Origin: Schmidtea polychroa
Taxonomy: Eukaryota
NCBI GenBank assembly: GCA_044892525.1
Contig: CM097885.1
Coordinates: 25,112,001 to 25,176,000 of the forward strand
Length of the DNA stretch: 64,000 bases
Reading direction: 5' to 3'
The notes beneath the pieces are model-generated. The model made no database searches. It worked only from the letters and a program-made list of their open reading frames with translations, and was not told where the DNA came from. How positions within the stretch are numbered: the first letter of the stretch is position 1; each line of letters opens with the position of its first letter. The position numbers and the translations under genes were made by a program. Below are positions 1-45,318 of the stretch, piece after piece.

Positions 1-729
1 AATTGTTTATTTGTGGTTTGAAAATGCATGAGTTCTCCTAGGAGTCAGTTCATAGTTCGGCTTAGAGTCATGACGGGGAATAACATAAACCAAAAGAAGT
101 AAATTTGAACAAGACAAAGACATTAATATATAACATAATTTAATTTTTCAACGCCTGAATCATGAAAATGTTAGAGTGATTATTTCTTTAAAAAATTGAG
201 AATATCAATTCCCCAAGTTGTTTAAAACCAAATACCGCTTTTCTTCCAGAAATTTACTATTTTTGAGGTATTTTAATTGTGCATTTTTGGAAAAAAATTT
301 AATTCATATTATTTTAAAATAAAATCATAAATAAAAATATGCAGAATTTAAAGTATTTCAATATGAAATTTAAGATAATAAATTTGATGAGATTATTAAT
401 TTTCTACTATTAAATTTAACTTAAATTGTTTTACCTAGCTTCAAAATTAAATTTTGAATAATTTCATGCTCATTATATTTTGATATACTATTTAATAATT
501 ATTTGAAATTTAAAATAATTTGTTTAATTTTAGTTACATGAATCCACATTTTTTGGTTGGATTATTTGTCATTCGAATAAATTATCAAAAATTAAGAAAA
601 CTGAATTTATTTTTATAAAAAGAAATCAAGAATTTACTTGTTTATTAAAATTTGTGAAAAATACAGCATCTTAAAAGTTGATCTAATATTCGATAAATTT
701 GCAATTCTACTGGAATATTTAATTTTAAT

Positions 730-8954: not shown

Positions 8955-10154
8955 ATGCCACCAAAAAAATTGAGTGGGTATGAATATCGGAAACGAAAAA
9001 TAAATAGACAACAACAAGCTGATAAGCACGATAAAATATTGAAATATTTTAATTCCAGTAAATCAGTAGCCGATGATAATCAACATTTCGAGTCAACATC
9101 TTCAAGCTCAGAGGACGATATAGGTAATGTGTCATCAGAAGCTGAAAATTGTAATATTATCAATAGGGATAATTTAACGTCTTCTCACGGAACTGAAATA
9201 ATTGTTCCTAGTGATTCAACTCATTCTGTATTTGAAAATATTTTAAATTATAATGATATTGGGCTATGGCCACAAAATTTAAAACATACGGAAATTGACA
9301 ATATAGTTGTAACTGACTTATATGGAAACGAAGAAAGGTGTAATCAACAACATATTTATCCAAGAGATGAAAATAATCGAAGCTTTTCCAATTCGCTTTT
9401 TTATCGTCAAATAAGTAATGGTGAAAAATTCCTAAGAAAATGGTTGCACTATTCAGAATCCAAAAATTCTGTATTTTGTTTTTTTTGCAAACTTTTTGAT
9501 CCATCAGGTAGGTCAAATCTAGCCAAATCTGGTTTATCGGATTGGAAAAATATTCACGACAGCTTGAAAATGCACGAACGGTCAGTTTCACATTTAAAAT
9601 GTGAAAAAAACTGGATAAAAACTCGATTAAGATTAAAAGGCAATAAAACTATTGATAAGAATTTGCAGTCTTTGATAGTCCAAGAAAAATATAATTGGAA
9701 AAAGGTACTAGAAAGATTAATAAACATTAGAAATTAGAAACGCATTAAATGAGTTGCAAGACACAATATTAGACGCTGCAGTTGTTTCAGAAGCTAGCTC
9801 TTTATCTGAAAAAATAGAAGATTTCGAGTTTTTGTTAACATTATCTGTCTGGTACGTACTTTTGTCAAAATTTAATATTGTCAGCAAATCCATGCAAAAG
9901 CTACATTTGATATGAGTAACGCCATCGAGCTTCTTCGGAATTATAAGATTTTTCTAGAAAATTATAGAGACTCCGGTTTTTCTGATGCTTTAAAATCGGC
10001 CAAAGATCTCGCCGCGCTATTAAACGTGAACGCACAATTTAAGGCTGTAAGAATCAGAAGGCGACAAAAACAATTTAGTTATGAGTGTGACGATGAAACT
10101 CCAGATGTAAATGACCCAGAAAAATATAATAAAAATCATGTTTTTAATGTTATG
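8955..10154 (+). pseudogene. hAT transposase 5' part (TTF-type zinc finger); catalytic core deleted near 9730; frameshifted
   Basis: RKWLHYSESKNSVFCFFCKLF...HERSVSH; sequence jumps from KKVLERLINI to the late FEFLLTLSVWY...IVSKSMQ region. Confidence 0.85.
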
Positions 10155-15988: not shown

Positions 15989-18900
15989 AGTAGGTAGATA
16001 GTAGCCCACGGGAACAATTACCCCCCCCCCCCCCGGGGGGGGGGGAGGGGTTTGTTCCCAAATTTTTATTACGCAATTGTTCCCAACTCATTTTTTTGCT
16101 TTCAGGGATTTTTGGTCCAAATTTTTTTTTATCACACTATAGTGAGGGGGTCTCGATGGTCCTGGGATTTTCAATACAAAAAATTTTTTTCAATACAAAA
16201 AGCTGGTCTACACTAAAAAAAGCATGGTAATTTAAGGTCTCAGGATATTTTCAATACAAAAAGCTGGTCTACACTAAAAAAGCCAAGGATTTTTCAGACT
16301 ATAGTGAGGTGAGTCTCCTTGGTCCTGAGAAATAAAGAGGTCTCGATGGACCTGGGATTTTCAATACAAATAAAATTTTTTCTATACAAAAATCCGACTA
16401 CCACTAAAAAAGCATGGAATTTTCACACTATAGTGAGGGGGGTCTCGATGAACCTGGGATTTTCAATACAAATAAAATTTTTCTATACAAAAATCCGACT
16501 ATCAATAAAAAAGCCAAGGATTTATCACACTATAGTGAGGGGGTCTCGATGGAACTGGGATTTTCAATACAAATAAAATTTTTCTATACAAAAATCCGAC
16601 TATCAATAAAAAAGTCAAGGATTATTCACACTATAGTGAGGGGGTCTCGATGAACCTGGGATTTTCAATACAAATAAAATTTTTTCTATACAAAAATCCG
16701 ACTACCACTAAAAAAGCCAAGGATTTTTCAGACTATAGTGAGGGGGTCTCGATGGTCCTGGGATTTTCAATACAAAAAAATTTTTTTCAATACAAAAACG
16801 ATGGTCCTGGGATTTTCAATACAAAAAAAATTTTTCAATACAAAAAGCTGGTCTACACTAAAAAAGCATGGTAATTTAATGTCTCAGGATATTTTCAATA
16901 CAAAAAGCTGGTCTACACTAAAAAAGCCAAGGATTTTTCAGACTATAGTGAGGTGAGTCTCCTTGGTCCTGAGAAATAGGTGGTCTACACTAAAAACGTG
17001 GTAAATTTTTCAATTAAAGTAAATAATGGTCCAAATTTTAAAATTAAAGTAAATTATGGTTCTAAAAATTAAATTATAGTAAATTATGGCTCAAATTTTT
17101 AAATTACAGTAAACTATGGTCCTAAAAATTAAATTACAGTAAATTATGGTCAAACATTTTAAATTAAAAAAAACAATGGTTCAAATTTTTCAAATACAGT
17201 AAATTATGGGTCTAAAAATTAAATTACAGTAAATTATGGTTCTAAAAATTAAATTATAGTAAATTATGGCTCAAATTTTTCAATTAAAGTAAATAATGGT
17301 TCTAAAAAATTAAATTAAAGTAAATTATGGCTCAAATTTTCAAATAAGGTAATAATGGTCCTAAAAAATTAAATTACAGTAAATTATGGTCCAAATTTTT
17401 AAATTAAAGTAAATTTAGGTTCTTAAAAATTAAATTAAAGTAAATTATGGTTCTAAAATATTAAATTACAGTAAATTATGGTCCAGATTTTTCAATTAAA
17501 GTAAATAATGGTCCAAATTTTTGAATTAAAGTAAATTTAAGTTCTTAAAAATTAAATTACAGTAAATAATGGTCCAAATTTTTAAATTAAGTAATCAATG
17601 GTAAAAAATTTTAAATAAGTAAATTAAAGTAATAATTTTTAAATAAGTAAATTAAAGTAATGTAATAAGTAAATTAAAGTAAGATTTTAAAATTTAATTA
17701 CAAAATAATAGAAGGTGTTTGAGAATTGAAATTTTTTAATGAAAATTTTTATGAAATAATTTTTAAGTAATTTTTAATAGAAATTTTAATGAAATATTTT
17801 TCAATGGTAATTTTTAATGGAAATTTTTATGGAATAATTTTTTACGTAATTTTTAATGGAAATTTTTATGAAATATTTTTCAATGATAATTTTAGATGGA
17901 AATTTTTATGAAATATTTTTCAATGGTAATTTTTAATGGAAATTTTTATGGAATAATTTTTTAAGTAATTTTTAATGTAAATTTTTATGAAATATTTTTC
18001 AATGATAATTTTAGATGGAAATTTTTAAGATAATTTTTAATGAAAATTTTTATGAAATATTTATCAAAGACAAATTTTAATAATAATTCAACAACAAACC
18101 AACAACTTAGTACCAACAACCAGTAACTTACGAACATGTATTAACAACCAGATACCTACAACTAGTTACTAACAACTAGTTACATGATACTAAGTAAATA
18201 CAACCACCTAACAAGTACTTACAACCAAAAACAAGCAACCAACCAGGTACCAGTTACCAACTACTAAGTACCTACAACCAACTAGTTACCTGATACCAAG
18301 TACTTACAACTAAATACTAACAACCAGTTACCTGATACCATATACCTACAACTAGATACCTACAACTAGTTACCAGGTACTAAGCATTAATTACCAACTA
18401 CTAAGTACCTACAACCAACTAACAACCACCTACCAAGTACTAAGCATTATCAACCAACTACTAAGTACCTACAACCAACTAGCTACCACCTACCAAGTAC
18501 TAACAACCAGTTACCAACTACTAAGCATTAATTACCTACAACTAGTTACTAACAACTAGCTACCAAGTACATACAACCAGACACTAAGCATTATCAACCG
18601 AGTACTAACAACCAAGTACAAGATACCTAGTACTGTCAACTAGATACCAAACACTTACAACCAGATGACCACATGAAATTATTGGTTAAATATGAAAATA
18701 AGGGTTATAATTAGTTGTTTAGTAAATTATGGTGTAAAATTAAGTAATAAAGCATAAATAGGTAAATTAAGGATAAGTAAATTAAAGTTAAAAAATTAAA
18801 TTAAAGTTAATTAAGGTCCAAATTTTAAAAATAAGTAATCAATGTTCTAAAAAATTAAATTAAAGTTAAATAAGTAAATTAAAGTAATAATTTTTAAAGA

Positions 18901-21900
18901 ATTTAATTAAAGTAATAATTTTTAAATAATTAATGTACTAAGTAAATTAAAGTAAGATTTTTAATTTTATTATCAAAAGATTGAATAACCACCAACTTTT
19001 TTGAGAAATGTAATTTATAATGAAAATTTAAATGGAATAATAATAATAATAATAATAAAAATAATAATAATTCAACAGTTACCAAAAATCGGTTACTGAT
19101 TATTTTTTAACTAGGTGCTAACAAATACTTACAACTAGATACCACGTACTAACTAACTCTCAAACAACCAGATACTTACAACTAACTACTAAATATTCTT
19201 CACTGTATTTTATGAAATGCTTTTTAAATTAATATTTTTTATACAGCTTCTATAATAATTTTAATTACAATCAGTAGAAAAACCTTTTCAAATTTAACAA
19301 AAATGATGATTTTCATCAAAAAACCACAACTCAATCACTTTAAAACACCACGTCATATTCAAAATAATTACAATGAAAGACTAATGAATTCTAATTTACA
19401 AAACATTCTTCTTTTAATTGATAACTTATTATTGCAATGTAAAAATCGCATTCAATAAATACTTATTGTTGATCAATTTTATTATATATACTCTGAGTTT
19501 ATCCGACAGGATGTTTTGACCCCCTAAGGGTACTGGTCGTAAGGGTATTAGTCGTAAGGGTACAGGTCGTAAGGGTACTGGTAGTAAAGGTACTGGTCGT
19601 AAGGGTATTAGTCGTAGGGGTATTGATCACTCTCAATCCCCACCTACTCATTAATTAGCTACCATGTACTAACCACTAGGTTTCAAACAACTAAATACTA
19701 AACACTTACAACCATGTACTAACAACCACCATCAAAACCCATCGAGAAATTAACAAATATCAACCTACAACTAGATACTTACAACCAGGTACCTGCTACC
19801 AAGTACTTACAACAAGATACCAAGTACCAACAATCAACTAACCACACATAAAAATAATAGCAATTAAATACAAAATATTCTTCATCACATACAATATCTT
19901 CTTATCAAAATCTAAAAAGTCAATCAGATACCAACTACCAAGTACCAAGTACTAACAACCAACTACCTAGAACCAACAACTATGTACTAACAAATTGATC
20001 TTTAAAAGAAAAATACTCTTCACTTGAAAAATTAGATGGAAAATTAATTGAACTCAAGGCATCAATAACTAGGTAAAAATTGATTAAATTATTGTAAAAA
20101 TTTAAAATATTCGAAATAAATATCATAAAAATTTAATTAATGGACAGGAAAAAATTCTAGTCATCAAGTAAATAAAAAAATATTGATCATTCAAGTTGAA
20201 TCAACTAAGATAATAAATTAATAAGATAAGATCTAGTAGATAATTGATTTAGATTGAATAAATTAATTTAAATAAAATTAATTTAAATTATTTTTTTAAA
20301 AGTAATACATGTACTCAAATTGATTGACTGATTTCTCAATATATTCAAAAAAAATCAGTATAAATTCATTACAATTATCAAAGTCAGCAATCTACAATAA
20401 AAATAATTATCATAAAATTCCAAAAGAGACTAGATAACTAATGATAACATCTAATAAACCAGTAAATTTATTTAAATGACAATAATTGGTATATCCTAGT
20501 GAATTCTCCAATTTCTCATTTCCTCCCAAATATATCAATATGTAAAGATTGGTATTGTAATGATAAATACTTGTTAAAGATCATATATTTACCTCAAACT
20601 AACAAGATTCCTTAAAATCCCTTAAATGACTATATTTCTACCCTTAATTCATATTATTACAAATATTTCACTAAAATCATCTAAAAAGCATCAAATTTCC
20701 CTGAAATAACTCTATCTTTTAAGATTGATATTTTAATGATAAGTACTTGTTAAAGATCATATATTCCCCTCAGACTAATAAGATTGCTTAAACTCCCCTT
20801 TAAATGACTATAATTCTAACTTTAATTCCTATTATCATACATGTTTCACTATTGATAAAACCGGTTATAATTAACTTTTTGTTAATCACTGTACTCGAAA
20901 TTTAAAATAAATATAACTGACTAGGTCCCATTAAAAGATTAAATTTATCCATCCAATAAAATATATTTCTTCAAATGATCATTTTTACCAATATTCAACC
21001 GATTTAATTACTAATTAAAATCAAGATTTCTTCCAATAAAGATCAATTTTATTTAGTCGATGTTTTAAGTCCATATTTCTAAACTTTTGTCATTCTCCGC
21101 CTAAATAAAGATAAAAATAAATTAAAGTTGATATCAATCCCAATTATCTGTAAAGATTTCATTGTCAAAACCAAGTAAATCGATCATTATCCCTACTTAA
21201 TAAAACATTGTTCTAAATTAATTTACTATGCATTAATCACAACCTAATAAAACGATATAATTATTATTGATTCATAACTGACTAATGTATTGCAATTTCC
21301 TTAAAAAACATTGATATTTTACCAACATCACCCTTAAAAAATCATATATTCCCATCGAAACCCTTCCCTCATTAAAGTCAATCGACTATATCTCCCTTAC
21401 AATAATATATTCCCATCTTAACCCATCTCACATTAAATCTAACCGACTATATCCCCTTAAAAGATCATATTTTCCCCATCTTAACCGATCTCTCATTAAA
21501 CCTAACCAACAATATCCCATCTTAACCGATCTCTCATTAAATCTAACCGACTATATCCCTTTAAAAATCATATATTCCCATCTTAACCCATCCCTCATTA
21601 AATTTAACCGACAATATCCCATCTTATCTGATCTCTCAGCAAATATTTCTACCATTTTAAACATCTATCCGATTATATCCCTTATTTTCCCTAAAGATTT
21701 CACCCACTTGAGCCCTTTAATATATATCAATCCTCTTAAAATCCTCAGAGAACTTCAAAAATATGACTTTTAATTAATTGTTATAGGAACCAGACAAATA
21801 ATAAGAGCCCATTAAAAGATCAAAATTCACTAAATTTTCTACAAATATTTACCATCAAATACTGGAGATGATATATATTGTTTGATCATAATTCTTCAGC

Positions 21901-24001
21901 TATTCAACCAATCATTTTCAAGCAATAACAGCAAACTAAATTTCTGTATATCCTACAATAATTATCACGTAAATTTAAAGTCCTTGATAAAGTTAACTGG
22001 TTTCTTAGCTTATGTTTTTTAAAGTGCATCAATGTAAATATTCTTAGAAAATTATTTTTAGAAAATTATTGAAAAATTATTTAGTCAAATACATTACAAA
22101 GTCATCAAAAATCACTTAATTATTAACCTAATTGTCAATGAAATTAATTTTTATTTAAAAACTATTCAATAAAATACAACTAATTATCAAGAAATTAATT
22201 AAATTTATCAATTAAATTTATCAGTCAACATGAAAGTTTTAGAAAATTGTTCAATATCCTCATAAAAAATTTATCATATCACTTGATTATTGTAAAAACT
22301 CTAATTATTAACCTCATTGAAAATAATTTTTATTTAAAATTAAAAAAAAAAACAAGTCATTAAAAATACATCCAATATTCAAGAAATTAATTAAATTTAT
22401 CTTAGAATTAGCATTAAATTATTAAATATTCATTCAATAATCATGAAATCCACAAAAATAATAGAAATTTACAAAAATCAAAGAAATTCACAAAATTGAT
22501 AAAAATTCACATAATTCGCCATAATTTACTTTAATTTAATTTTTTAGAACCATTATTTACTTTAATTGAAAAATTTGAGCCATAATTTACTATAATTTAA
22601 TTTTTAGAACCATAATTTACTGTAATTTAATTTTTAGGCCCATAATTTACTGTATTTGAAAAATTTGAACCATTGTTTTTTTTAATTTAAAATGTTTGAC
22701 CATAATTTATTGTAATTTAATTTTTAGGACCATAATTTACTGTAATTTAAAAATTTGAGCCATAATTTACTATAATTTAATTTTTAGAACCATAATTTAC
22801 TTTAATTTTAAAATTTGGACCATTATTTACTTTAATTGAAAAATTTACCACGTTTTTAGTGTAGACCACCTATTTCTCAGGACCAAGGAGACTCACCTCA
22901 CTATAGTCTGAAAAATCCTTGGCTTTTTTAGTGTAGACCAGCTTTTTGTATTGAAAATATCCTGAGACATTAAATTACCATGCTTTTTTAGTGTAGACCA
23001 GCTTTTTGTATTGAAAAATTTTTTTTGTATTGAAAATCCCAGGACCATCGTTTTTGTATTGAAAAAAATTTTTTTGTATTGAAAATCCCAGGACCATCGA
23101 GACCCCCTCACTATAGTCTGAAAAATCCTTGGCTTTTTTAGTGGTAGTCGGATTTTTGTATAGAAAAAATTTTATTTGTATTGAAAATCCCAGGTTCATC
23201 GAGACCCCCTCACTATAGTGCGAATAATCCTTGACTTTTTTATTGATAGTCGGATTTTTGTATAGAAAAATTTTATTTGTATTGAAAATCCCAGTTCCAT
23301 CGAGACCCCCTCACTATAGTGTGATAAATCCTTGGCTTTTTTATTGATAGTCGGATTTTTGTATAGAAAAATTTTATTTGTATTGAAAATCCCAGGTTCA
23401 TCGAGACCCCCCTCACTATAGTGTGAAAATTCCATGCTTTTTTAGTGGTAGTCGGATTTTTGTATAGAAAAAATTTTATTTGTATTGAAAATCCCAGGTC
23501 CATCGAGACCCCTTTATTTCTCAGGACCAAGGAGACTCACCTCACTATAGTCTGAAAAATCCTTGGCTTTTTTAGTGTAGACCAGCTTTTTGTATTGAAA
23601 AAAATTTTTTGTATTGAAAATCCCAGGACCATCGAGACCCCCTCACTATAGTCTGAAAATTCCTTGGCTTTTTTAGTGGTAGTCGGATTTTTGTATTGAA
23701 AAAAATTTTTTGTATTGAAAATCCCAGGACCATCGAGACCCCCTCACTATAGTCTGAAAATTCTATGCTTTTTTATTGATAGTCGGATTTTTGTATTGAA
23801 AAAAATTTTTTGTATTGAAAATCCCAGGACCATCGAGACCCCCTCACTATGGTGTGATAAAAAAAAATTTGGACCAAAAATCCCTGAAAGCAAAAAAATG
23901 AGTTGGGAACAATTGCGTAATAAAAATTTGGGAACAAACCCCTCCCCCCCCCCCCCCCCCCGGGGGGGGTAATTGTTCCCGTGGGCTACTATCTACCTAC
24001 T
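15989..24001. mobile_element. Non-coding 8.0 kb Polinton deletion derivative nested in the outer element
   Basis: Ends AGTAGGTAGATAGTAGCCCACGGGAACAATTACCC and its exact inverse; 6-bp TSD ATTGTT (15983-15988, 24002-24007); TIRs ~15989-17331 and ~22518-24001. Confidence 0.92.
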
Positions 24002-25425: not shown

Positions 25426-26209
25426 CTAAGATATTCTTGGTTTGCGTATACCAGTCGATTTTTCTCGATATTTTTGCTTATCTAATCCAAGTGAATTTGC
25501 CAAATTTTTATCAAATGTAACTTCGCAAATGTCATCATTCAAACTGAAGGTAAACATCAAATCTTTCACAATTTCCAAATTTTTAAATATGTGTGAACAA
25601 TTGAACTTTAAATATTTAAGTAAATCATCAAGTTTATCAAAATATAATTCATCAGCAAAGGTAAATGATTCTTCAACTTCATCATTATACGACAGAGATA
25701 TTTTGATTTCTTCTTTCACTATACTGTTTGCTTCAAATAGATTAAAACATAATAAATACTCCGTCTCCGTAACAATATTTTTCAACTTATTGCAACCCAT
25801 TCGTTTGGCATCTTCAATAGTTTCGAATGTTATTGTAAATGGTTTAAAATCACAACTGATATTTAATCCATCCTTGTAAAACATATAGCAATGCGAATCT
25901 AATATTTGATTCGGAATATGATATGTTTTATCATAATTACTGATAACAAAGATACCGCTACATGTTTTCACAATATTCCTTTTGAAATCAATATTACATT
26001 GACTATAAAATGGGAATGTGTTGTACACGAATGTAAAATCTTGCAGTGCAACTTCCCAGTCCCCATTTAAAGAAATCGGATTCTGGAGATTGACCATAAA
26101 TTTACTGGCTTGATTGTCTGGCTTGATTGTCTGGATGAATTAATGGGCAACTATTGCTCGGCAAAATAGTATAAAAATTCACTTTATTAGGTCTTTTGCT
26201 GATATCCAT
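25426..26209 (-). pseudogene. Polinton minor capsid (penton-like) protein; frameshifted and probably 3'-truncated
   Basis: Removing one copy of the 13-bp duplication GCTTGATTGTCTG (26108-26133) restores MDISKRPNKVNFYTILPSNSCPLIHPDNQASKFMVNLQNPISLNGDWEVALQDF, which matches the FYxxLPSNS...GxWEVAL N-terminus of this family. Confidence 0.75.
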
Positions 26210-26811
26210 GACGGGTTTTGATAACCATGCCATTTGACATAGTATTGTTTATCCTTACCGACCTTTTTAGTTTTCAATATTTTTTGAATTCTAAATACTT
26301 TTGGGGGAGGAATGACTTATAATTCCTGCTCATAAAATTTCCCTTGTACAATATTATTATCATTCTCATTGATGACATACATTACAGGATTCTGTTTAGT
26401 ATTTATTTTTGAAATTACAAAGACTTCATCACTCCAATTTGTATCAAAATTTTTAATAAATGGTGATGCACTAATTTTACTAATTCTAACATGGTCACCG
26501 ACTTTATATTTAGGTTTTGCAATTTGTACAGATTTCTTAGAAGTCAATGATGTTTTTGATGTAATATCAACCGGTCTCAATCCATTCAGTCCTCGATGTG
26601 ATGAATGATTATAACTTGTTATTATTTTCGGTAAAGCATTTACCCATTTTTTATTACCTTGATGCACGAACAATTTCTTTAATCGATCTCTCAATGTTCG
26701 ATTAAATCTTTCAACATGGGCAGCTTTGTATTGAGAATGTACCGAGTAGTGATTTATTTTCAGTTTATCGAGGATTTGCTTAACTTTGCTATTGTAGAAT
26801 TCTTTACCTAA

Positions 26812-26891
<80 letters not shown>

Positions 26892-27278
26892 CTAAATCTG
26901 TTTGCAAGTTATTAGGATGTCCATCTTTAAATAAAATATTAATTGCCTTGGACATTTCTTCTGCAGATTTTGCCTTGACTGGTATTGCTCGTGCAAACCT
27001 GCTGTATACATTAATACATGTTAAAATATATTTGTTCCCATTGTTAATTTTCGAATAAGGTATCATCTCCATCAAATCCATTTGCCATAAATCGTCAATA
27101 CCAAATGTTTTATACGCTCTTGTTGGAAATCTTTTCCGCATTGGTTTGTTCAAACTGTACGCAAGCTGATCTGATAACCACTTCTGGGTTTCTTTTTTCG
27201 AATTCGGAACTCTTTTGTTTAATTTTGCCACTCCACCGAAACCGGCTTCGTCTTCTGGGTTCGTCCAAATCTTCTCCA
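26179..27278 (-). pseudogene. Polinton retroviral-like (rve) integrase with C-terminal chromodomain; intron 26808-26891; premature TAA at 26317-26319
   Basis: DDLWQMDL, LQTDLG|KEF, VERFNRTL, YNHSSH, NWSDEVF and GKFYEQEL*; the same frame continues as FRIQKILKTKKVGKDKQYYVKWHGYQNPSWISAKDL. Confidence 0.92.
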
Positions 27279-27340
27279 TTACAACAAGAAGATTTAAAAT
27301 TAAATTTAATGTCGGGCAATGAAGGATTAGCACCCATTGT

Positions 27341-27865
27341 TTATGATTGATTTCCTACAACTCCACCTAATAATGATAATGCCAGAGGTATCAATGTACC
27401 AATAAATCCACCTTGTTGTTTATATATAATTTTCCTCATTTGCTTACGATTTTTATTATTTACTAAAGATATCAATGGTTTCCTATGTTTGCTCAATAAA
27501 TGCTTTTTTGATTTACTGATTTTAATTTTGCCTTTGACTACTTTAAGTATAATATTGAGTAAATCATCGACAACAAAATTTGGGAATGATTGCAATATAT
27601 TCATTCTTTTCATAATCGGGGCCTTTAACAATGCATTAAAAAATGGAAAACTGCGATGATTCTTAACTACTTTTTTACTGGTTTTACGGGTTTTACGTTT
27701 AGGTTTAGGATTTTTCGAAATAAGATTCATTGCAGAGAAATTTTCAGTTACAAGTTTCTTAGATGGTGTATAACTAGTTGTTGGTGGTACTTTTGGAACT
27801 TTAATACTCTTTCTAATACTTTTTCTTAATTTCCTAATATTTTTCACCCTTGCTTTTAGAAACAT
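27341..27865 (-). CDS. Basic Polinton virion-type protein with an adenovirus pX-like GG|F + hydrophobic tail
   Basis: Very K/R-rich; C-terminus KQQGGFIGTLIPLALSLLGG; lies between the ATPase and integrase. Confidence 0.7.
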   Translation of the reverse strand: MFLKARVKNIRKLRKSIRKSIKVPKVPPTTSYTPSKKLVTENFSAMNLISKNPKPKRKTRKTSKKVVKNHRSFPFFNALLKAPIMKRMNILQSFPNFVVDDLLNIILKVVKGKIKISKSKKHLLSKHRKPLISLVNNKNRKQMRKIIYKQQGGFIGTLIPLALSLLGGVVGNQS

Positions 27866-27883: not shown

Positions 27884-28510
27884 TCAACTTTGTTTATAAA
27901 CCATGGCACCTTTTGGGTTGAAAATATCTGTTTTTACTCGTAAATCATCGGGACATTGTTGCGTGAAATCAAGAAATATATATCCATGAGGTATTTTTGT
28001 TGCATCTTGAAATGCACTGATAAGAAAATTACGATTGTTAGGGTATGCTTGGCGTGCAAGAAAATCAATCACTGTTGCATCTCTAGGATTCTTGAAAATG
28101 ACTAAATATTGTACATTTAAATTACGTGTTCGATGTGCCCCACCTTGATGAAATAGATTTTGAGTTATGAAAATAACTGTTACACCGACATGTCTGCTAA
28201 TCTTTGTAAATAAATTATTAAAATCTTTTTCTTTATTAGCTTCTTGATACAAATCATCGATAATAATGACATCACCTTTCTTTAATCGGCTGGACCAGTT
28301 TTTATCGAATCCCTTTACTATTTTCATGTTTTTTAATTTACAGAAACTTGATTGAGTTAATCCATGTTCTTCATCAGCACCCCTATGCCAATAAATCCTG
28401 TTGAATTTTGATTTGAATAAATCTGATTTTAATAATTTACAAACAAATAATGTTTTTCCACTACCACTCGGACCAACGATTTGGTATACTGCATCATTTC
28501 TTAATTCCAT
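27884..28510 (-). CDS. A32/FtsK-type DNA packaging ATPase
   Basis: Walker A IVGPSGSGKT, Walker B IIIDDL, family motifs LFTKISRH, IFITQNLF and YLVIFKNPRD; likely start MELRN at 28510. Confidence 0.93.
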   Translation of the reverse strand: MELRNDAVYQIVGPSGSGKTLFVCKLLKSDLFKSKFNRIYWHRGADEEHGLTQSSFCKLKNMKIVKGFDKNWSSRLKKGDVIIIDDLYQEANKEKDFNNLFTKISRHVGVTVIFITQNLFHQGGAHRTRNLNVQYLVIFKNPRDATVIDFLARQAYPNNRNFLISAFQDATKIPHGYIFLDFTQQCPDDLRVKTDIFNPKGAMVYKQS

Positions 28511-28613
28511 TTCAAAAAGTTTATAAATATATATGTATTTGTTTATATTCGATGATTTAATGAACTCGTGCTCAATTTGTATATAAAGACTAATTTTCAT
28601 AAATGATTTAATA

Positions 28614-29021
28614 ATGTTAGCAAATATAAATTATCGAGGAAATTTTAATGTATCGAATATGAGGTTCCCACCAGGGAAACCCCAGCAAATTATCGATAGA
28701 AGCGGGAAATATCCGATAATATTTTTCAAGACTGGTAAATGCAGAATTATGGGATGTAAGAAACCTTTGGATATTAATAAATTACAATATCGAATAAATA
28801 ATATTATAATCCAATCAATTACCGTTACTATGGATATGGGACATAGTATCAATCTATATAACATGTCGAAAAAATGTGATTGTATGTTTGAACTGGAATT
28901 ATTTCCAGCACTAAGACTATTAAAATATAACCCTATATGTGTCAACGTGTTTGCTAGTGGAAAGGTTGTCATGTTGGGGTTGAGAAATTTGGAGTATAGA
29001 GAATTTGTTGACAATGTTTGA
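28614..29021 (+). CDS. Divergent TATA-binding-protein-like protein; possible premature TGA, frame continues to 29051
   Basis: Two TBP-like repeats: IIFFKTGKCRIMGCK, and IQSITVTMDMGHSINL...FELELFPAL...VNVFASGKVVMLG (compare TBP YEPELFPGL...LIFVSGKVVLTG). Confidence 0.85.
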   Translation: MLANINYRGNFNVSNMRFPPGKPQQIIDRSGKYPIIFFKTGKCRIMGCKKPLDINKLQYRINNIIIQSITVTMDMGHSINLYNMSKKCDCMFELELFPALRLLKYNPICVNVFASGKVVMLGLRNLEYREFVDNV

Positions 29022-29110
29022 AATGAGATAATTTCATTGGTCGATTTCTAATTGGTTATTGATTGATTTAAACAAACGGTTTTTTGTTTAGGATTCATTT
29101 ATTCAACAAC

Positions 29111-29918: not shown

Positions 29919-30329
29919 ATGACCAAGAAAATTTCATGCACCGAAAAACCTAAAGAAATGGTACAACCAGTTCAAATGTTCCAAAATTACAAAATGTATT
30001 TTTTGAAAGAAGAAATCAATATGAAATTGGTTGCACCAGTCAAGCTAATTCCAACTAAATTTCAATTCTTATCCGGCACGCTTTCAATGATTGATGTCAA
30101 AACTATTGATGATGTTTTTAAACGGTTAGATTCGAATCTATCATGTAATCAACATGCATGGTTCAACAATAGATATGCAAGATTTTATGATGCTTTTGAT
30201 GAAATCAGTTTCAAAGAAAATGAAAATTGGTATATAACAATTGCAATCCAGGGATATAAAGTTGATAATAATGATGTATATTCTCCTATTTGGAAAATTA
30301 TGTCTGCTAGACTTTCACAAATATTTTAA
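29919..30329 (+). CDS. Unknown 136-aa cargo protein, possibly an OB-fold ssDNA-binding protein
   Basis: Intact ORF with upstream TATA and downstream AATAAA; C-terminal ITIAIQGYKV...PIWKI is reminiscent of viral SSBs (weak). Confidence 0.6.
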   Translation: MTKKISCTEKPKEMVQPVQMFQNYKMYFLKEEINMKLVAPVKLIPTKFQFLSGTLSMIDVKTIDDVFKRLDSNLSCNQHAWFNNRYARFYDAFDEISFKENENWYITIAIQGYKVDNNDVYSPIWKIMSARLSQIF

Positions 30330-30455
30330 TGTTATATTTAATAAATGTATTAGTCATATTTGTTTTTCTCTTTATTAATTGCAACATAAATGCAAATGAC
30401 ATGCAAATTTAACAAAGAAAATCTATAAACAAACTTAAAATATAGCTTTAAAGTG

Positions 30456-30832
30456 ATGAAAATGACTGCAGAAAAAGGTTAACATGATTAATTAATTACT
30501 GAATTATTTATTATTATTATTATTTAGAATTATTAATCAACTTTTTGTTGGAAAAATTAGCAGAAATAGCTGGTGTAAAAATTGAGGACATATTATCTGT
30601 TACAAATGCATTAAATATCGACTGGGTAGTTGAGAGTCAAGATTCAGGATTTGATGATCAGGAAGAAACTCAAGAAACCGATACTGAAGAAATTGATGAG
30701 GAAATCTTTGAACCTATAGATGAACCTATAGAGGAACCTAAAGATAATATTACGAATGATTGTATTGATCATGTCGTTGAAAATATAATGAAATGTGGAG
30801 ATGACGACTGCGAATGTGTTAATAAATTTTAG
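30456..30832 (+). CDS. Small highly acidic cargo protein; predicted intron 30478-30527
   Basis: Splicing gives MKMTAEKE|LLINFLLEKLAEI...DSGFDDQEETQETDTEEIDEE...; the intron supplies a start codon for an ORF that otherwise begins at TTG. Confidence 0.6.
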
Positions 30833-30946: not shown

Positions 30947-31467
30947 TTAATTTTTATTTAAAAATCGAGATATAACATACAAAATAGCAACACCTGTTGC
31001 AAGTTTTACATAGTTTTTAAACTTCATTTTGTGGTCGTCGATTTCTTTTGCATTTCGGGCCAATTGGTTCAATACACCCCATCCGCCATTGGCTTCTATC
31101 CATGGTGTAAACTTTGACTTGATTATCTAGGAAATAAATATTAATAAAATATAGAGTATAAAAGTATTACTTCTTGAGACCACTGATAATAATGTTCAGA
31201 GTCCCATAAACCTTTTTCGATTATAATCTTCATATAAGCGAACCCTACTAGTATTCGGGTCCACTTCATCTCATCGTCGCATAGGCAGTTAAAAATCCTA
31301 TGAAAATTGATTTTTCTCGTTTCGAGGCAATCGGAATTGAGCACATCCTCATAATCAATATGATTTCCTTCTATAATCTTTTCGGTCCGATCGACCAGGA
31401 AACTGAGGCTTTCCATAATCTTCTTGTTGATAAGTTCGCTTAAAAGATTTTCCATAAAATGAGACAT
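30947..31467 (-). CDS. Bcl-2-family protein, 158 aa; exons 31467-31171 and 31126-30947
   Basis: BH1-like DDEMKWTRILVGFAY; a 44-bp phase-0 GT-AG intron joins in frame to BH2 FTPWIEANGGW; C-terminal hydrophobic tail LATGVAILYVISRFL. Confidence 0.85.
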
Positions 31468-34828: not shown

Positions 34829-34831
34829 GTT

Positions 34832-35359
34832 ATGCTGGATCAATCGTTGATATCTATATCAGAAAGGTTTCAGCAAATGAAAGATTTCGAAGATTCGTGG
34901 GGTTTTTTGTTCAATATTCACAATAATAAAAATCGTTGTGATTTGCTGAAGAGTTGCAAAGATTTACATCTGAAATTAACAAATGAGGCCAGTAGTGATA
35001 TAAATGGAATAGAATTGTGCGAGGAAATCGAATCATTGAAGCAATTGGTACCAGATGATGTTAAAGATCCTTTAATATGTTTACAATTTATCAATGATAA
35101 TAATTTGAAAAGTACAGTACCAAATCTGTGGGTGGCTTTACGAATCCTCGTAACAATTCCTGTTAGTGTTGCGAGTGGTGATAGAAGTTTTAGTAAATTA
35201 AAACTAATAAAAACGTATTTGCGATCTACTATGACGGAAGATAGGTTGAATAATTTGGCCATTATTTCAATTGAAAATAATGTTGTAGCAAACCTAAATT
35301 TGGAGGCAGCAATAGAAATATTTGCAGACATGAAAGCCAGGAAAAAATCATTCTTATAA
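34832..35359 (+). pseudogene. hAT transposase 3' part with dimerisation domain
   Basis: PNLWVALRILVTIPVSVASGDRSFSKLKLIKTYLRSTMTEDRLNNLAIISIE; the catalytic E of ERSFS appears here as D. Confidence 0.92.

Positions 35360-42138: not shown

Positions 42139-45318
<3,180 letters not shown>

Follow-up and report, generated by a model that had tools for sequence, protein, structure and literature searches.

The cellular TATA-box binding proteins (TBPs) are saddle-shaped proteins that comprise eukaryotic TBP and TRF and archaeal TBP (PF00352). A canonical TBP is about 180 residues long and contains four intercalating phenylalanines (99, 116, 190, and 207), two helices per repeat, and an acidic C-terminal stirrup. 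Residue numbers follow yeast TBP, are anchored on F207, and were checked against Table 1 of PMC12529657, which lists V71, V122, T124, N159, V161, and L205 as DNA-face positions. The same source names the TFIIB-binding acids E184 and E188; these are 186 and 188 in the present numbering. The N-terminal repeat sits on the 3′ half of the TATA box, P191 restricts box position 1 to T, and the yeast altered-specificity mutant TBPm3 is changed at positions 194, 203, and 205 (PMC1636458).

The beta- and gamma-herpesvirus TBP mimics (vTBPs; ORF24, BcRF1, and UL87) are large multidomain proteins with a polymerase-binding N-terminus, a C-terminal DNA domain, and no acidic stirrup. Nucleocytoviricota and mirusviruses encode TBP homologues of their own, and they mostly bring their own RNA polymerase. 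Polintons/Mavericks, including the "adintoviruses" (Starrett et al. 2021, PMC8502044), carry a pPolB, an rve integrase, an A32 ATPase, a double jelly-roll capsid protein, a C5 protease, and PLA2-like and Bcl-2-like cargo, and they have inverted ends and a 6-bp duplication. The elements described here share these features and bear a miniature TBP (mini-TBP). Together with a TATA-like box found before the late genes, mini-TBP suggests that the element switches on its own late genes.

A Defective Polinton/Maverick Copy

The window, which is the whole 64,000-nucleotide stretch of DNA analysed, contains a defective Polinton/Maverick copy at 10155-34828. It has AGTAG...CTACT ends and long degenerate inverted arms, and it is flanked by a 6-bp target duplication (GTTATG, 10149-10154 and 34829-34834), so that both the terminal inverted repeats and the duplication of this element class are present. 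A related 8-kb element without a long ORF is nested at 15989-24001, with its own AGTAG...CTACT ends, 1084-nt perfect inverted arms, and an ATTGTT duplication. Remains of hAT-type transposases flank the element at 34832-35359 (Pfam hAT dimerisation, E 1.8e-12) and, by appearance only, at 42288-44431.

The copy retains an rve integrase and an A32-like packaging ATPase, as a Polinton/Maverick should. The ATPase gene (27884-28510(-); Pfam Pox_A32, E 5.5e-7) likely starts at 28510, the mechanical ORF start being 28600, and its product is 74-76% identical to two metagenome Polinton ATPases. A basic Lys-rich ORF follows at 27341-27865(-) and is conserved between ATPase and integrase in relatives. The integrase gene (26200-27279(-); Pfam rve, E 8e-6) runs into a stop near 26317 before reaching the homologous end. 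A GT...AG-bounded (ATT)n stretch at 26813-26892(-) interrupts the integrase ORF in frame, differs in length among copies, and is probably a spliceosomal intron.

A putative minor capsid gene at 25432-26188(-), recognized by tblastn and by comparison with another genomic copy (L046), has a frameshift near 26120 and is cut off at 25432. We take it to be a minor capsid gene from its position, not from its fold, and the names PZ-like, minor capsid, and exonuclease-like are presumptive for element ORFs in general. Downstream of it, the window copy lacks the PZ-like, major capsid, and pPolB genes; pPolB and the double jelly-roll major capsid gene are present in copy L046 and in relatives. The capsid protein has no match in Pfam or by PDB sequence and was identified through its fold, the candidate of one relative (L053) folding as a double jelly roll (Z 25.2). 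The protease of relatives matches Peptidase_C5.

Further genes lie beside these. A 136-aa ORF at 29919-30329(+) has homologues beside TBP in many elements; it gave no useful Pfam match, and its Atlas leads are weak (best 0.83). An ORF at 31141-31467(-) is Bcl-2-like with a weak Pfam match (E 0.047). One relative (L058) carries a ubiquitin-conjugating (E2) gene at 225-719(-) (Pfam UQ_con, E 1.7e-12).

The Mini-TBP Gene and Its Family

The mini-TBP gene occupies 28614-29051(+). The family length is 145 codons; in the window, a premature TGA at 29019-29021 (codon 136) leaves an ORF of 135 residues (28614-29021(+)), and the frame beyond it continues for nine codons (NEIISLVDF) to a stop ending at 29051. 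Of 4118 candidates in the AT-rich, 781-Mb genome, 150 were scored, which gives a minimum of 150 near-identical TBP copies. Since only 2 of these 150 stop at the TGA and 148 read through, the TGA is a lesion, as the preliminary description had proposed; among the 30 best-scoring of the 150, it occurs in two. The window copy is a damaged gene inside a non-autonomous element.

The ORF contains the motifs IIFFKTGK, FELELFPAL, and VNVFASGK, which bears out the earlier reading of the second-repeat phenylalanine motifs (ELFPAL, VNVFASGK) and of an acidic stirrup (FELELF). The Pfam TBP profile PF00352 matches well above its curated cut-off (E 2e-13; 50.4 bits against 22.9), with the match confined to residues 64-125, the second repeat. 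The top solved-structure sequence matches of the window protein are also TBPs (E 1e-6).

The gene had been described as head-to-head with the ATPase across a gap containing TATATAAAG at 28580. In the window this is correct, with 103 bp between the TBP ATG and the likely ATPase ATG at 28510(-), but the order is kept in only 4 of the 23 metagenome loci with both genes; in 18 of them the two genes are in tandem, with TBP on the upstream side. Among the contigs of four presumed RNA runs, one crosses the divergent gap, which speaks neither for nor against expression.

Mini-TBP has many relatives. A word search found 93 at 38-96% identity, mostly 144-194 aa long, and a profile search found 60 clusters at E<1e-30. 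A Polinton hallmark gene is present in 33 of 80 metagenome TBP loci and in 22 of the 30 loci of at least 3 kb; cellular-type TBPs account for 4 of the 80. No relative turned up when viral contigs were scanned with alignments of TBP, ATPase, and capsid. The genome contains several other multi-copy TBP-like families, represented by about 139 additional scored matches. A TBP-less element family was sought there, but the two further families sampled both encode a mini-TBP, of 154 and 145 aa. Besides a canonical TBP and a second TBP-like gene, the host itself (L035-L044) contains three or more additional divergent TBP/TRF-like loci, of which two read as single long frames. Three loci from the host TFIIB search are presumably Brf1, which they resemble by motifs.

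The element family stands apart from the proteins of its host. In a quick tree of 120 rows, in which most representative rows came without genomic context and which held no labelled giant-virus TBP, an SH-aLRT of 100 separates 105 element-type rows from 15 rows that comprise cellular-type proteins, host TBP and host TRF-like ones among them. The family groups with neither host TBP nor host TRF, and its identity is 18% to the host TBP exon, 18-24% to host TRF-like genes, and about 26% to a canonical TBP. Median dN/dS is 0.185 over 30 unsaturated, non-independent pairs among 58 sequences, and the 30 genomic copies contain 26 synonymous and 6 non-synonymous alleles, on 85 and 350 sites. Tree and substitutions together indicate that mini-TBP is an element-borne family under purifying selection, separate from host TBP/TRF.

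A captured fragment of host TBP in neutral decay would fit the window copy, with its premature stop and broken element. For the family, this origin is refuted by the separate clade, the dN/dS, and the read-through, and the low identity to the host genes stands against it as well; it has almost no probability left. The two outcomes that would have undone the preliminary description, the lack of a significant TBP profile or structure match and nesting inside host TBP as a neutrally decaying pseudogene, both failed to appear.

Fold and DNA-Binding Face

A natural 145-aa relative (P0001), 96% identical to the window protein, was folded with 79 relatives and gave a model with a pLDDT of 95.4. The model is a two-lobed TBP saddle (Z 13.3, rmsd 2.5 Å, 142-145 residues), whereas the next unrelated fold reaches Z 6.5. 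It matches cellular TBPs over its whole length in Foldseek (E 4e-9) and TBP clusters in the Atlas. By the profile match and this model, the ORF at 28614-29021(+) encodes a TBP-fold protein. It has no N-terminal extension, as had been noted; the model starts at the equivalent of yeast TBP residue 66 (human TBP 160).

The first repeat is the more reduced. Helices in the model are restricted to 81-85 and 129-142, both in the second repeat, and both first-repeat helices of a canonical TBP are gone. The F99 column is empty in 79/79 relatives, so that three of the four intercalating phenylalanines are kept, each in 78-79 of the 79. The first repeat had been described as shortened and as keeping only IIFFKTGK; it is indeed shortened, but it also keeps its strands, the N69 equivalent, and G125, and what it has lost is F99 and the two helices. 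The lost helices carry surfaces for TFIIA, Brf1, and other TBP regulators in canonical TBP.

Core residues are highly conserved among the 79 relatives: N69 in 75, F116 in 78, F190 in 79, P191 in 71, and F207 in 79. By sequence, the acidic C-terminal stirrup is also kept, with E186 in 76 and E188 in 78. The stirrup of the preliminary description is therefore real, but its ELELF spelling is a minority allele (5 of the 30 best-scoring genomic copies), and the family form is EPELF, with P in 76/79.

The DNA face differs from that of cellular TBP at nine positions, eight of them near-fixed. The near-fixed changes are V71N (76 of 79), V122R (78), T124M (79), N159S (76), V161T (73), I194R (77), V203C (79), and L205N (79); T215L occurs in 68/79. 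These replacements indicate a DNA face that is remodelled and more polar.

A subgroup of about 167 aa (L095, L103-L105, L108-L112, L121) keeps the first-repeat helices by alignment and shares the R/M/N face. It adjoins a PLA2-like gene and favours CATAAAC.

The YATAAAC Box

Two types of promoter-like box are found in the window. A canonical TATA box, TATATAAAG, lies at 28580-28588(+), 34 nt before the TBP ATG, and would be an early promoter read by host TBP; a TATAWAWR match occurs 34-36 nt upstream of TBP in 29 of the 30 best-scoring copies. Canonical TATA boxes also precede the 29919 ORF (41 nt) and the Bcl-2-like ORF (36 nt). On the opposite strand, a TATAAAC box at 28541-28547(-), a putative late promoter, lies 37 nt before the ATPase ATG and at the same offset in 30/30 copies. 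A second box at 28525-28519(-) is found in the window copy only (two boxes in 1/30). Another TATAAAC box (27892-27898(-)) falls within the final codons of the ATPase gene, where it is read as YKQ, and stands 33 nt ahead of the basic ORF; a CATAAAC box (27339-27345(-)) lies 66 nt before the integrase ATG, with a further box at 27424. TATATAAAG is a canonical host-type box before the TBP gene, not the element-specific one. A TATAAAC box at 30424(+) lies ahead of a degraded acidic reading frame (about 30460-30830).

The box was counted in metagenome loci L047-L122, in the 100 nt before each start codon placed by homology. ORFs without a placeable start or enough flank were dropped, and the sample was dereplicated (TBP 61 to 42, ATPase 23 to 18). 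The 86 late-type ORFs comprise ATPase, basic-protein, integrase, capsid, PZ-like, protease, PLA2-like, and exonuclease-like genes, "early" and "late" being labels by gene function. Sense YATAAAC precedes 71/86 late-type ORFs, compared with 0/86 in antisense and about 3.3 in shuffles, and it precedes none of the 42 TBP genes (Fisher p 2e-21). The genes without a box include 15 late-type ORFs, and 4 of 21 unknown neighbour ORFs have one. Canonical TATA is found before 16/42 TBP genes, against 3.3 in shuffles. Spacing is also constrained, with 43 of 75 boxes falling 31-45 nt before the ATG where 12 are expected. The box-preceded capsid candidate is the double jelly-roll capsid protein (9/9 cases).

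Loci with no TBP hit provide a control. By the same rule, the box precedes 61/73 late-type genes in 27 TBP-bearing loci and 1/37 in 23 Polinton/PLV-like viral loci with no TBP hit. The control loci came from integrase and pPolB scans of viral contigs and are of other lineages and partial (4-20 kb), so that a TBP could lie outside them; because TBP and box may each have arisen once in one clade, the comparison amounts to a single evolutionary contrast. The pattern recurs in the two further element families of the genome, where boxes favour the structural strand by 8 to 0 and 6 to 2.

Many boxes lie in the ends of upstream genes. Of those inside genes, 57 fall within the final 120 nt of the upstream gene (12,240 nt in total) and 11 elsewhere (55,158 nt), and the embedded boxes are read in two frames, as YKQ/HKQ or as xIN. 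TATAAA and CATAAA are known polyadenylation signal variants, and YATAAAC could accordingly be a variant polyadenylation signal of the upstream gene instead of a promoter, as the concentration of in-gene boxes within the last 120 nt would allow. This is very unlikely, as the ATPase box lies in a divergent gap with no gene end on that strand (30/30 copies), the box keeps its distance to the ATG that follows, it is missing before TBP genes that come after a gene on the same strand, and the fixed C would go unexplained. Y-K-Q is invariant in 12/12 aligned ATPases, and 16/16 YKQ tails use TATAAACAA, though these genes often use TAC and AAG elsewhere. The position of the embedded boxes, their two frames, and this codon usage indicate that the constraint on the box acts on the DNA.

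The reader of the box could be a factor other than mini-TBP. The forkhead motif RYAAAYA overlaps ATAAACA, which is the top 7-mer (58/86). The box might be read by a forkhead or other host factor, or by a different element protein, and mini-TBP would then have another target; no function is assigned to several conserved element ORFs, and TBP and box may merely share a clade. The forkhead form GTAAAYA, however, occurs in 1/86 sense and 2/86 antisense regions, the box is strictly sense and position-fixed, and G follows the C in 15/82 sites. The first box base also follows the TBP subgroup, with 19 C to 9 T in the long-lobe group and 41 T to 6 C in the short group, albeit as one contrast. Such a reader is improbable on these grounds.

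A Probable Early-to-Late Switch

Mini-TBP is probably an altered-specificity TBP that serves as the early-to-late switch of one Polinton/Maverick clade, a reading that concerns the family and not the window copy. In the likely course of events, host TBP makes mini-TBP early, and mini-TBP then reads YATAAAC to start the late genes, as herpesvirus vTBP does. TBP and the other non-structural genes have ordinary TATA boxes as a sequence pattern, which the host machinery would read first. Mini-TBP would bind YATAAAC(R) through its remodelled concave face, and the kept acidic stirrup could recruit host TFIIB and RNA polymerase II, so that the ATPase, integrase, capsid, and protease genes would be switched on. 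With the first-repeat helices gone, TFIIA, Brf1, and other regulators of TBP would lose the surfaces they use. The C at box position 7 falls in the 3′ half, where the N-terminal repeat sits, and this is the most changed lobe in mini-TBP.

Extended to the whole clade, the balance tips slightly toward a natural altered-specificity TBP with a matching YATAAAC core promoter, together forming a one-protein, nearly orthogonal switch. With the same slight preference, this protein would use three phenylalanines, drop its regulatory surfaces, and still engage host TFIIB and Pol II. The preliminary description had offered a dedicated late-promoter factor or a TFIIB decoy. The first idea has good indirect support from a box that marks late genes and never the TBP gene and from the remodelled DNA face, but the likely target is YATAAAC, not TATATAAAG. 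Some observations run counter to the switch: P191 is kept, yet CATAAAC precedes 24/86 late-type ORFs; wild-type TBP has been solved on a C(-25) TATA variant (PDB 1qn3), so the host protein can bind a similar site; and only 16/42 TBP genes have a clean canonical TATA.

As a decoy or competitor, mini-TBP would bind TFIIB or block host or early promoters, and host TBP/TFIID would read YATAAAC as a weak TATA. The acidic stirrup is kept in 76-78 of 79 relatives while F99 and both first-repeat helices are lost, wild-type TBP crystallises on the C(-25) variant, and the box lies at a TATA-like distance. A pure decoy, however, needs no invariant R, M, N, and C on its DNA face, TBP selections disfavour C in the downstream part of the site (PMC1636458), and CATAAAC is common. 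The class split of 71/86 against 0/42, with 1/37 in TBP-less loci, would also be left unexplained. A TFIIB decoy accounts for neither the invariant DNA-face changes nor the box, and it is an unlikely alternative to the altered-specificity switch.

Mini-TBP and its box bear on capsid-gene control in Polintons/Mavericks and on a possible viral cycle in animal copies. A dedicated TBP with its own box would be a testable early-to-late switch, in which the box predicts start sites and mini-TBP RNA predicts late-gene activity. As a natural minimal TBP with changed DNA contacts, mini-TBP also tests which parts of TBP are needed and how specificity shifts. If the altered-specificity switch is correct, Polintons would have an explicit early/late programme, their late genes could be recognized by a sequence marker, and the two TBP subgroups would track TATAAAC versus CATAAAC. 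Viral TBP-driven late transcription would then exist in a form separate from, and much simpler than, the herpesvirus complex.

Comparison with Known Systems

Mini-TBP shares the full-length saddle fold of cellular TBPs along with N69, F116, F190, P191, F207, and E186/E188. Unlike them, it is 145 aa long instead of about 180, lacks F99 and the first-repeat helices, and is borne by a mobile element. Viral TBP homologues of Nucleocytoviricota and mirusviruses match it in BFVD down to E 3e-8, but their identity of 8-20% is no closer than that of cellular TBP (20-27%). No RNA polymerase was seen in the mini-TBP-bearing elements. Yeast TBPm3 is changed at the same positions 194, 203, and 205, with F, T, and V there versus R, C, and N in mini-TBP. 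TBPm3 relaxes box position 2, whereas YATAAAC differs at positions 1 and 7 (PMC1636458).

The Polinton literature may touch on this protein in labels. In the available parts of PMC8502044, "TBP" stands only in the legend of Fig. 5, for related MELD viruses, with no accompanying text or promoter box; the gene so labelled may belong to the mini-TBP family. Beyond the "TBP" labels in PMC8502044 and bioRxiv 697771, the open-access literature, as far as its texts were available, gave no description of a Polinton TBP family or box. TBP and TATA are absent from the available parts of PMC11161782, 10.1101/2023.08.22.554363, PMC11131425, and 10.64898/2026.10.13.758929. A TATAAAC or CATAAAC motif with Polintons is absent among the literature matches listed, and no link between TATAAAC and Hoogsteen pairing was found in the open-access literature.

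The closest functional parallel is probably herpesvirus vTBP. KSHV ORF24 is a virus-encoded TBP mimic with a polar DNA face (PMC12529657), and in both systems a non-canonical TATA-like box precedes late genes, TATTWAA there and YATAAAC here. In the elements, this dedicated box is present as a sequence pattern (71/86 versus 0/42; control 1/37). The proteins differ in build: ORF24, with 752 aa and multiple domains, is part of a six-protein complex and keeps four phenylalanines without the acidic TFIIB residues, whereas mini-TBP, at 145 aa, is a bare core with the stirrup kept and F99 lost (PMC12529657). The structural comparison of BcRF1 with mini-TBP gives E 0.02 at 10% identity, and similarity at the level of the fold only makes an independent origin likely. 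Within the TBP superfamily, to which it belongs, mini-TBP is distinct from canonical TBP, from host TRF, and from herpesvirus vTBP; by analogy, it most likely works as the herpesvirus protein does.
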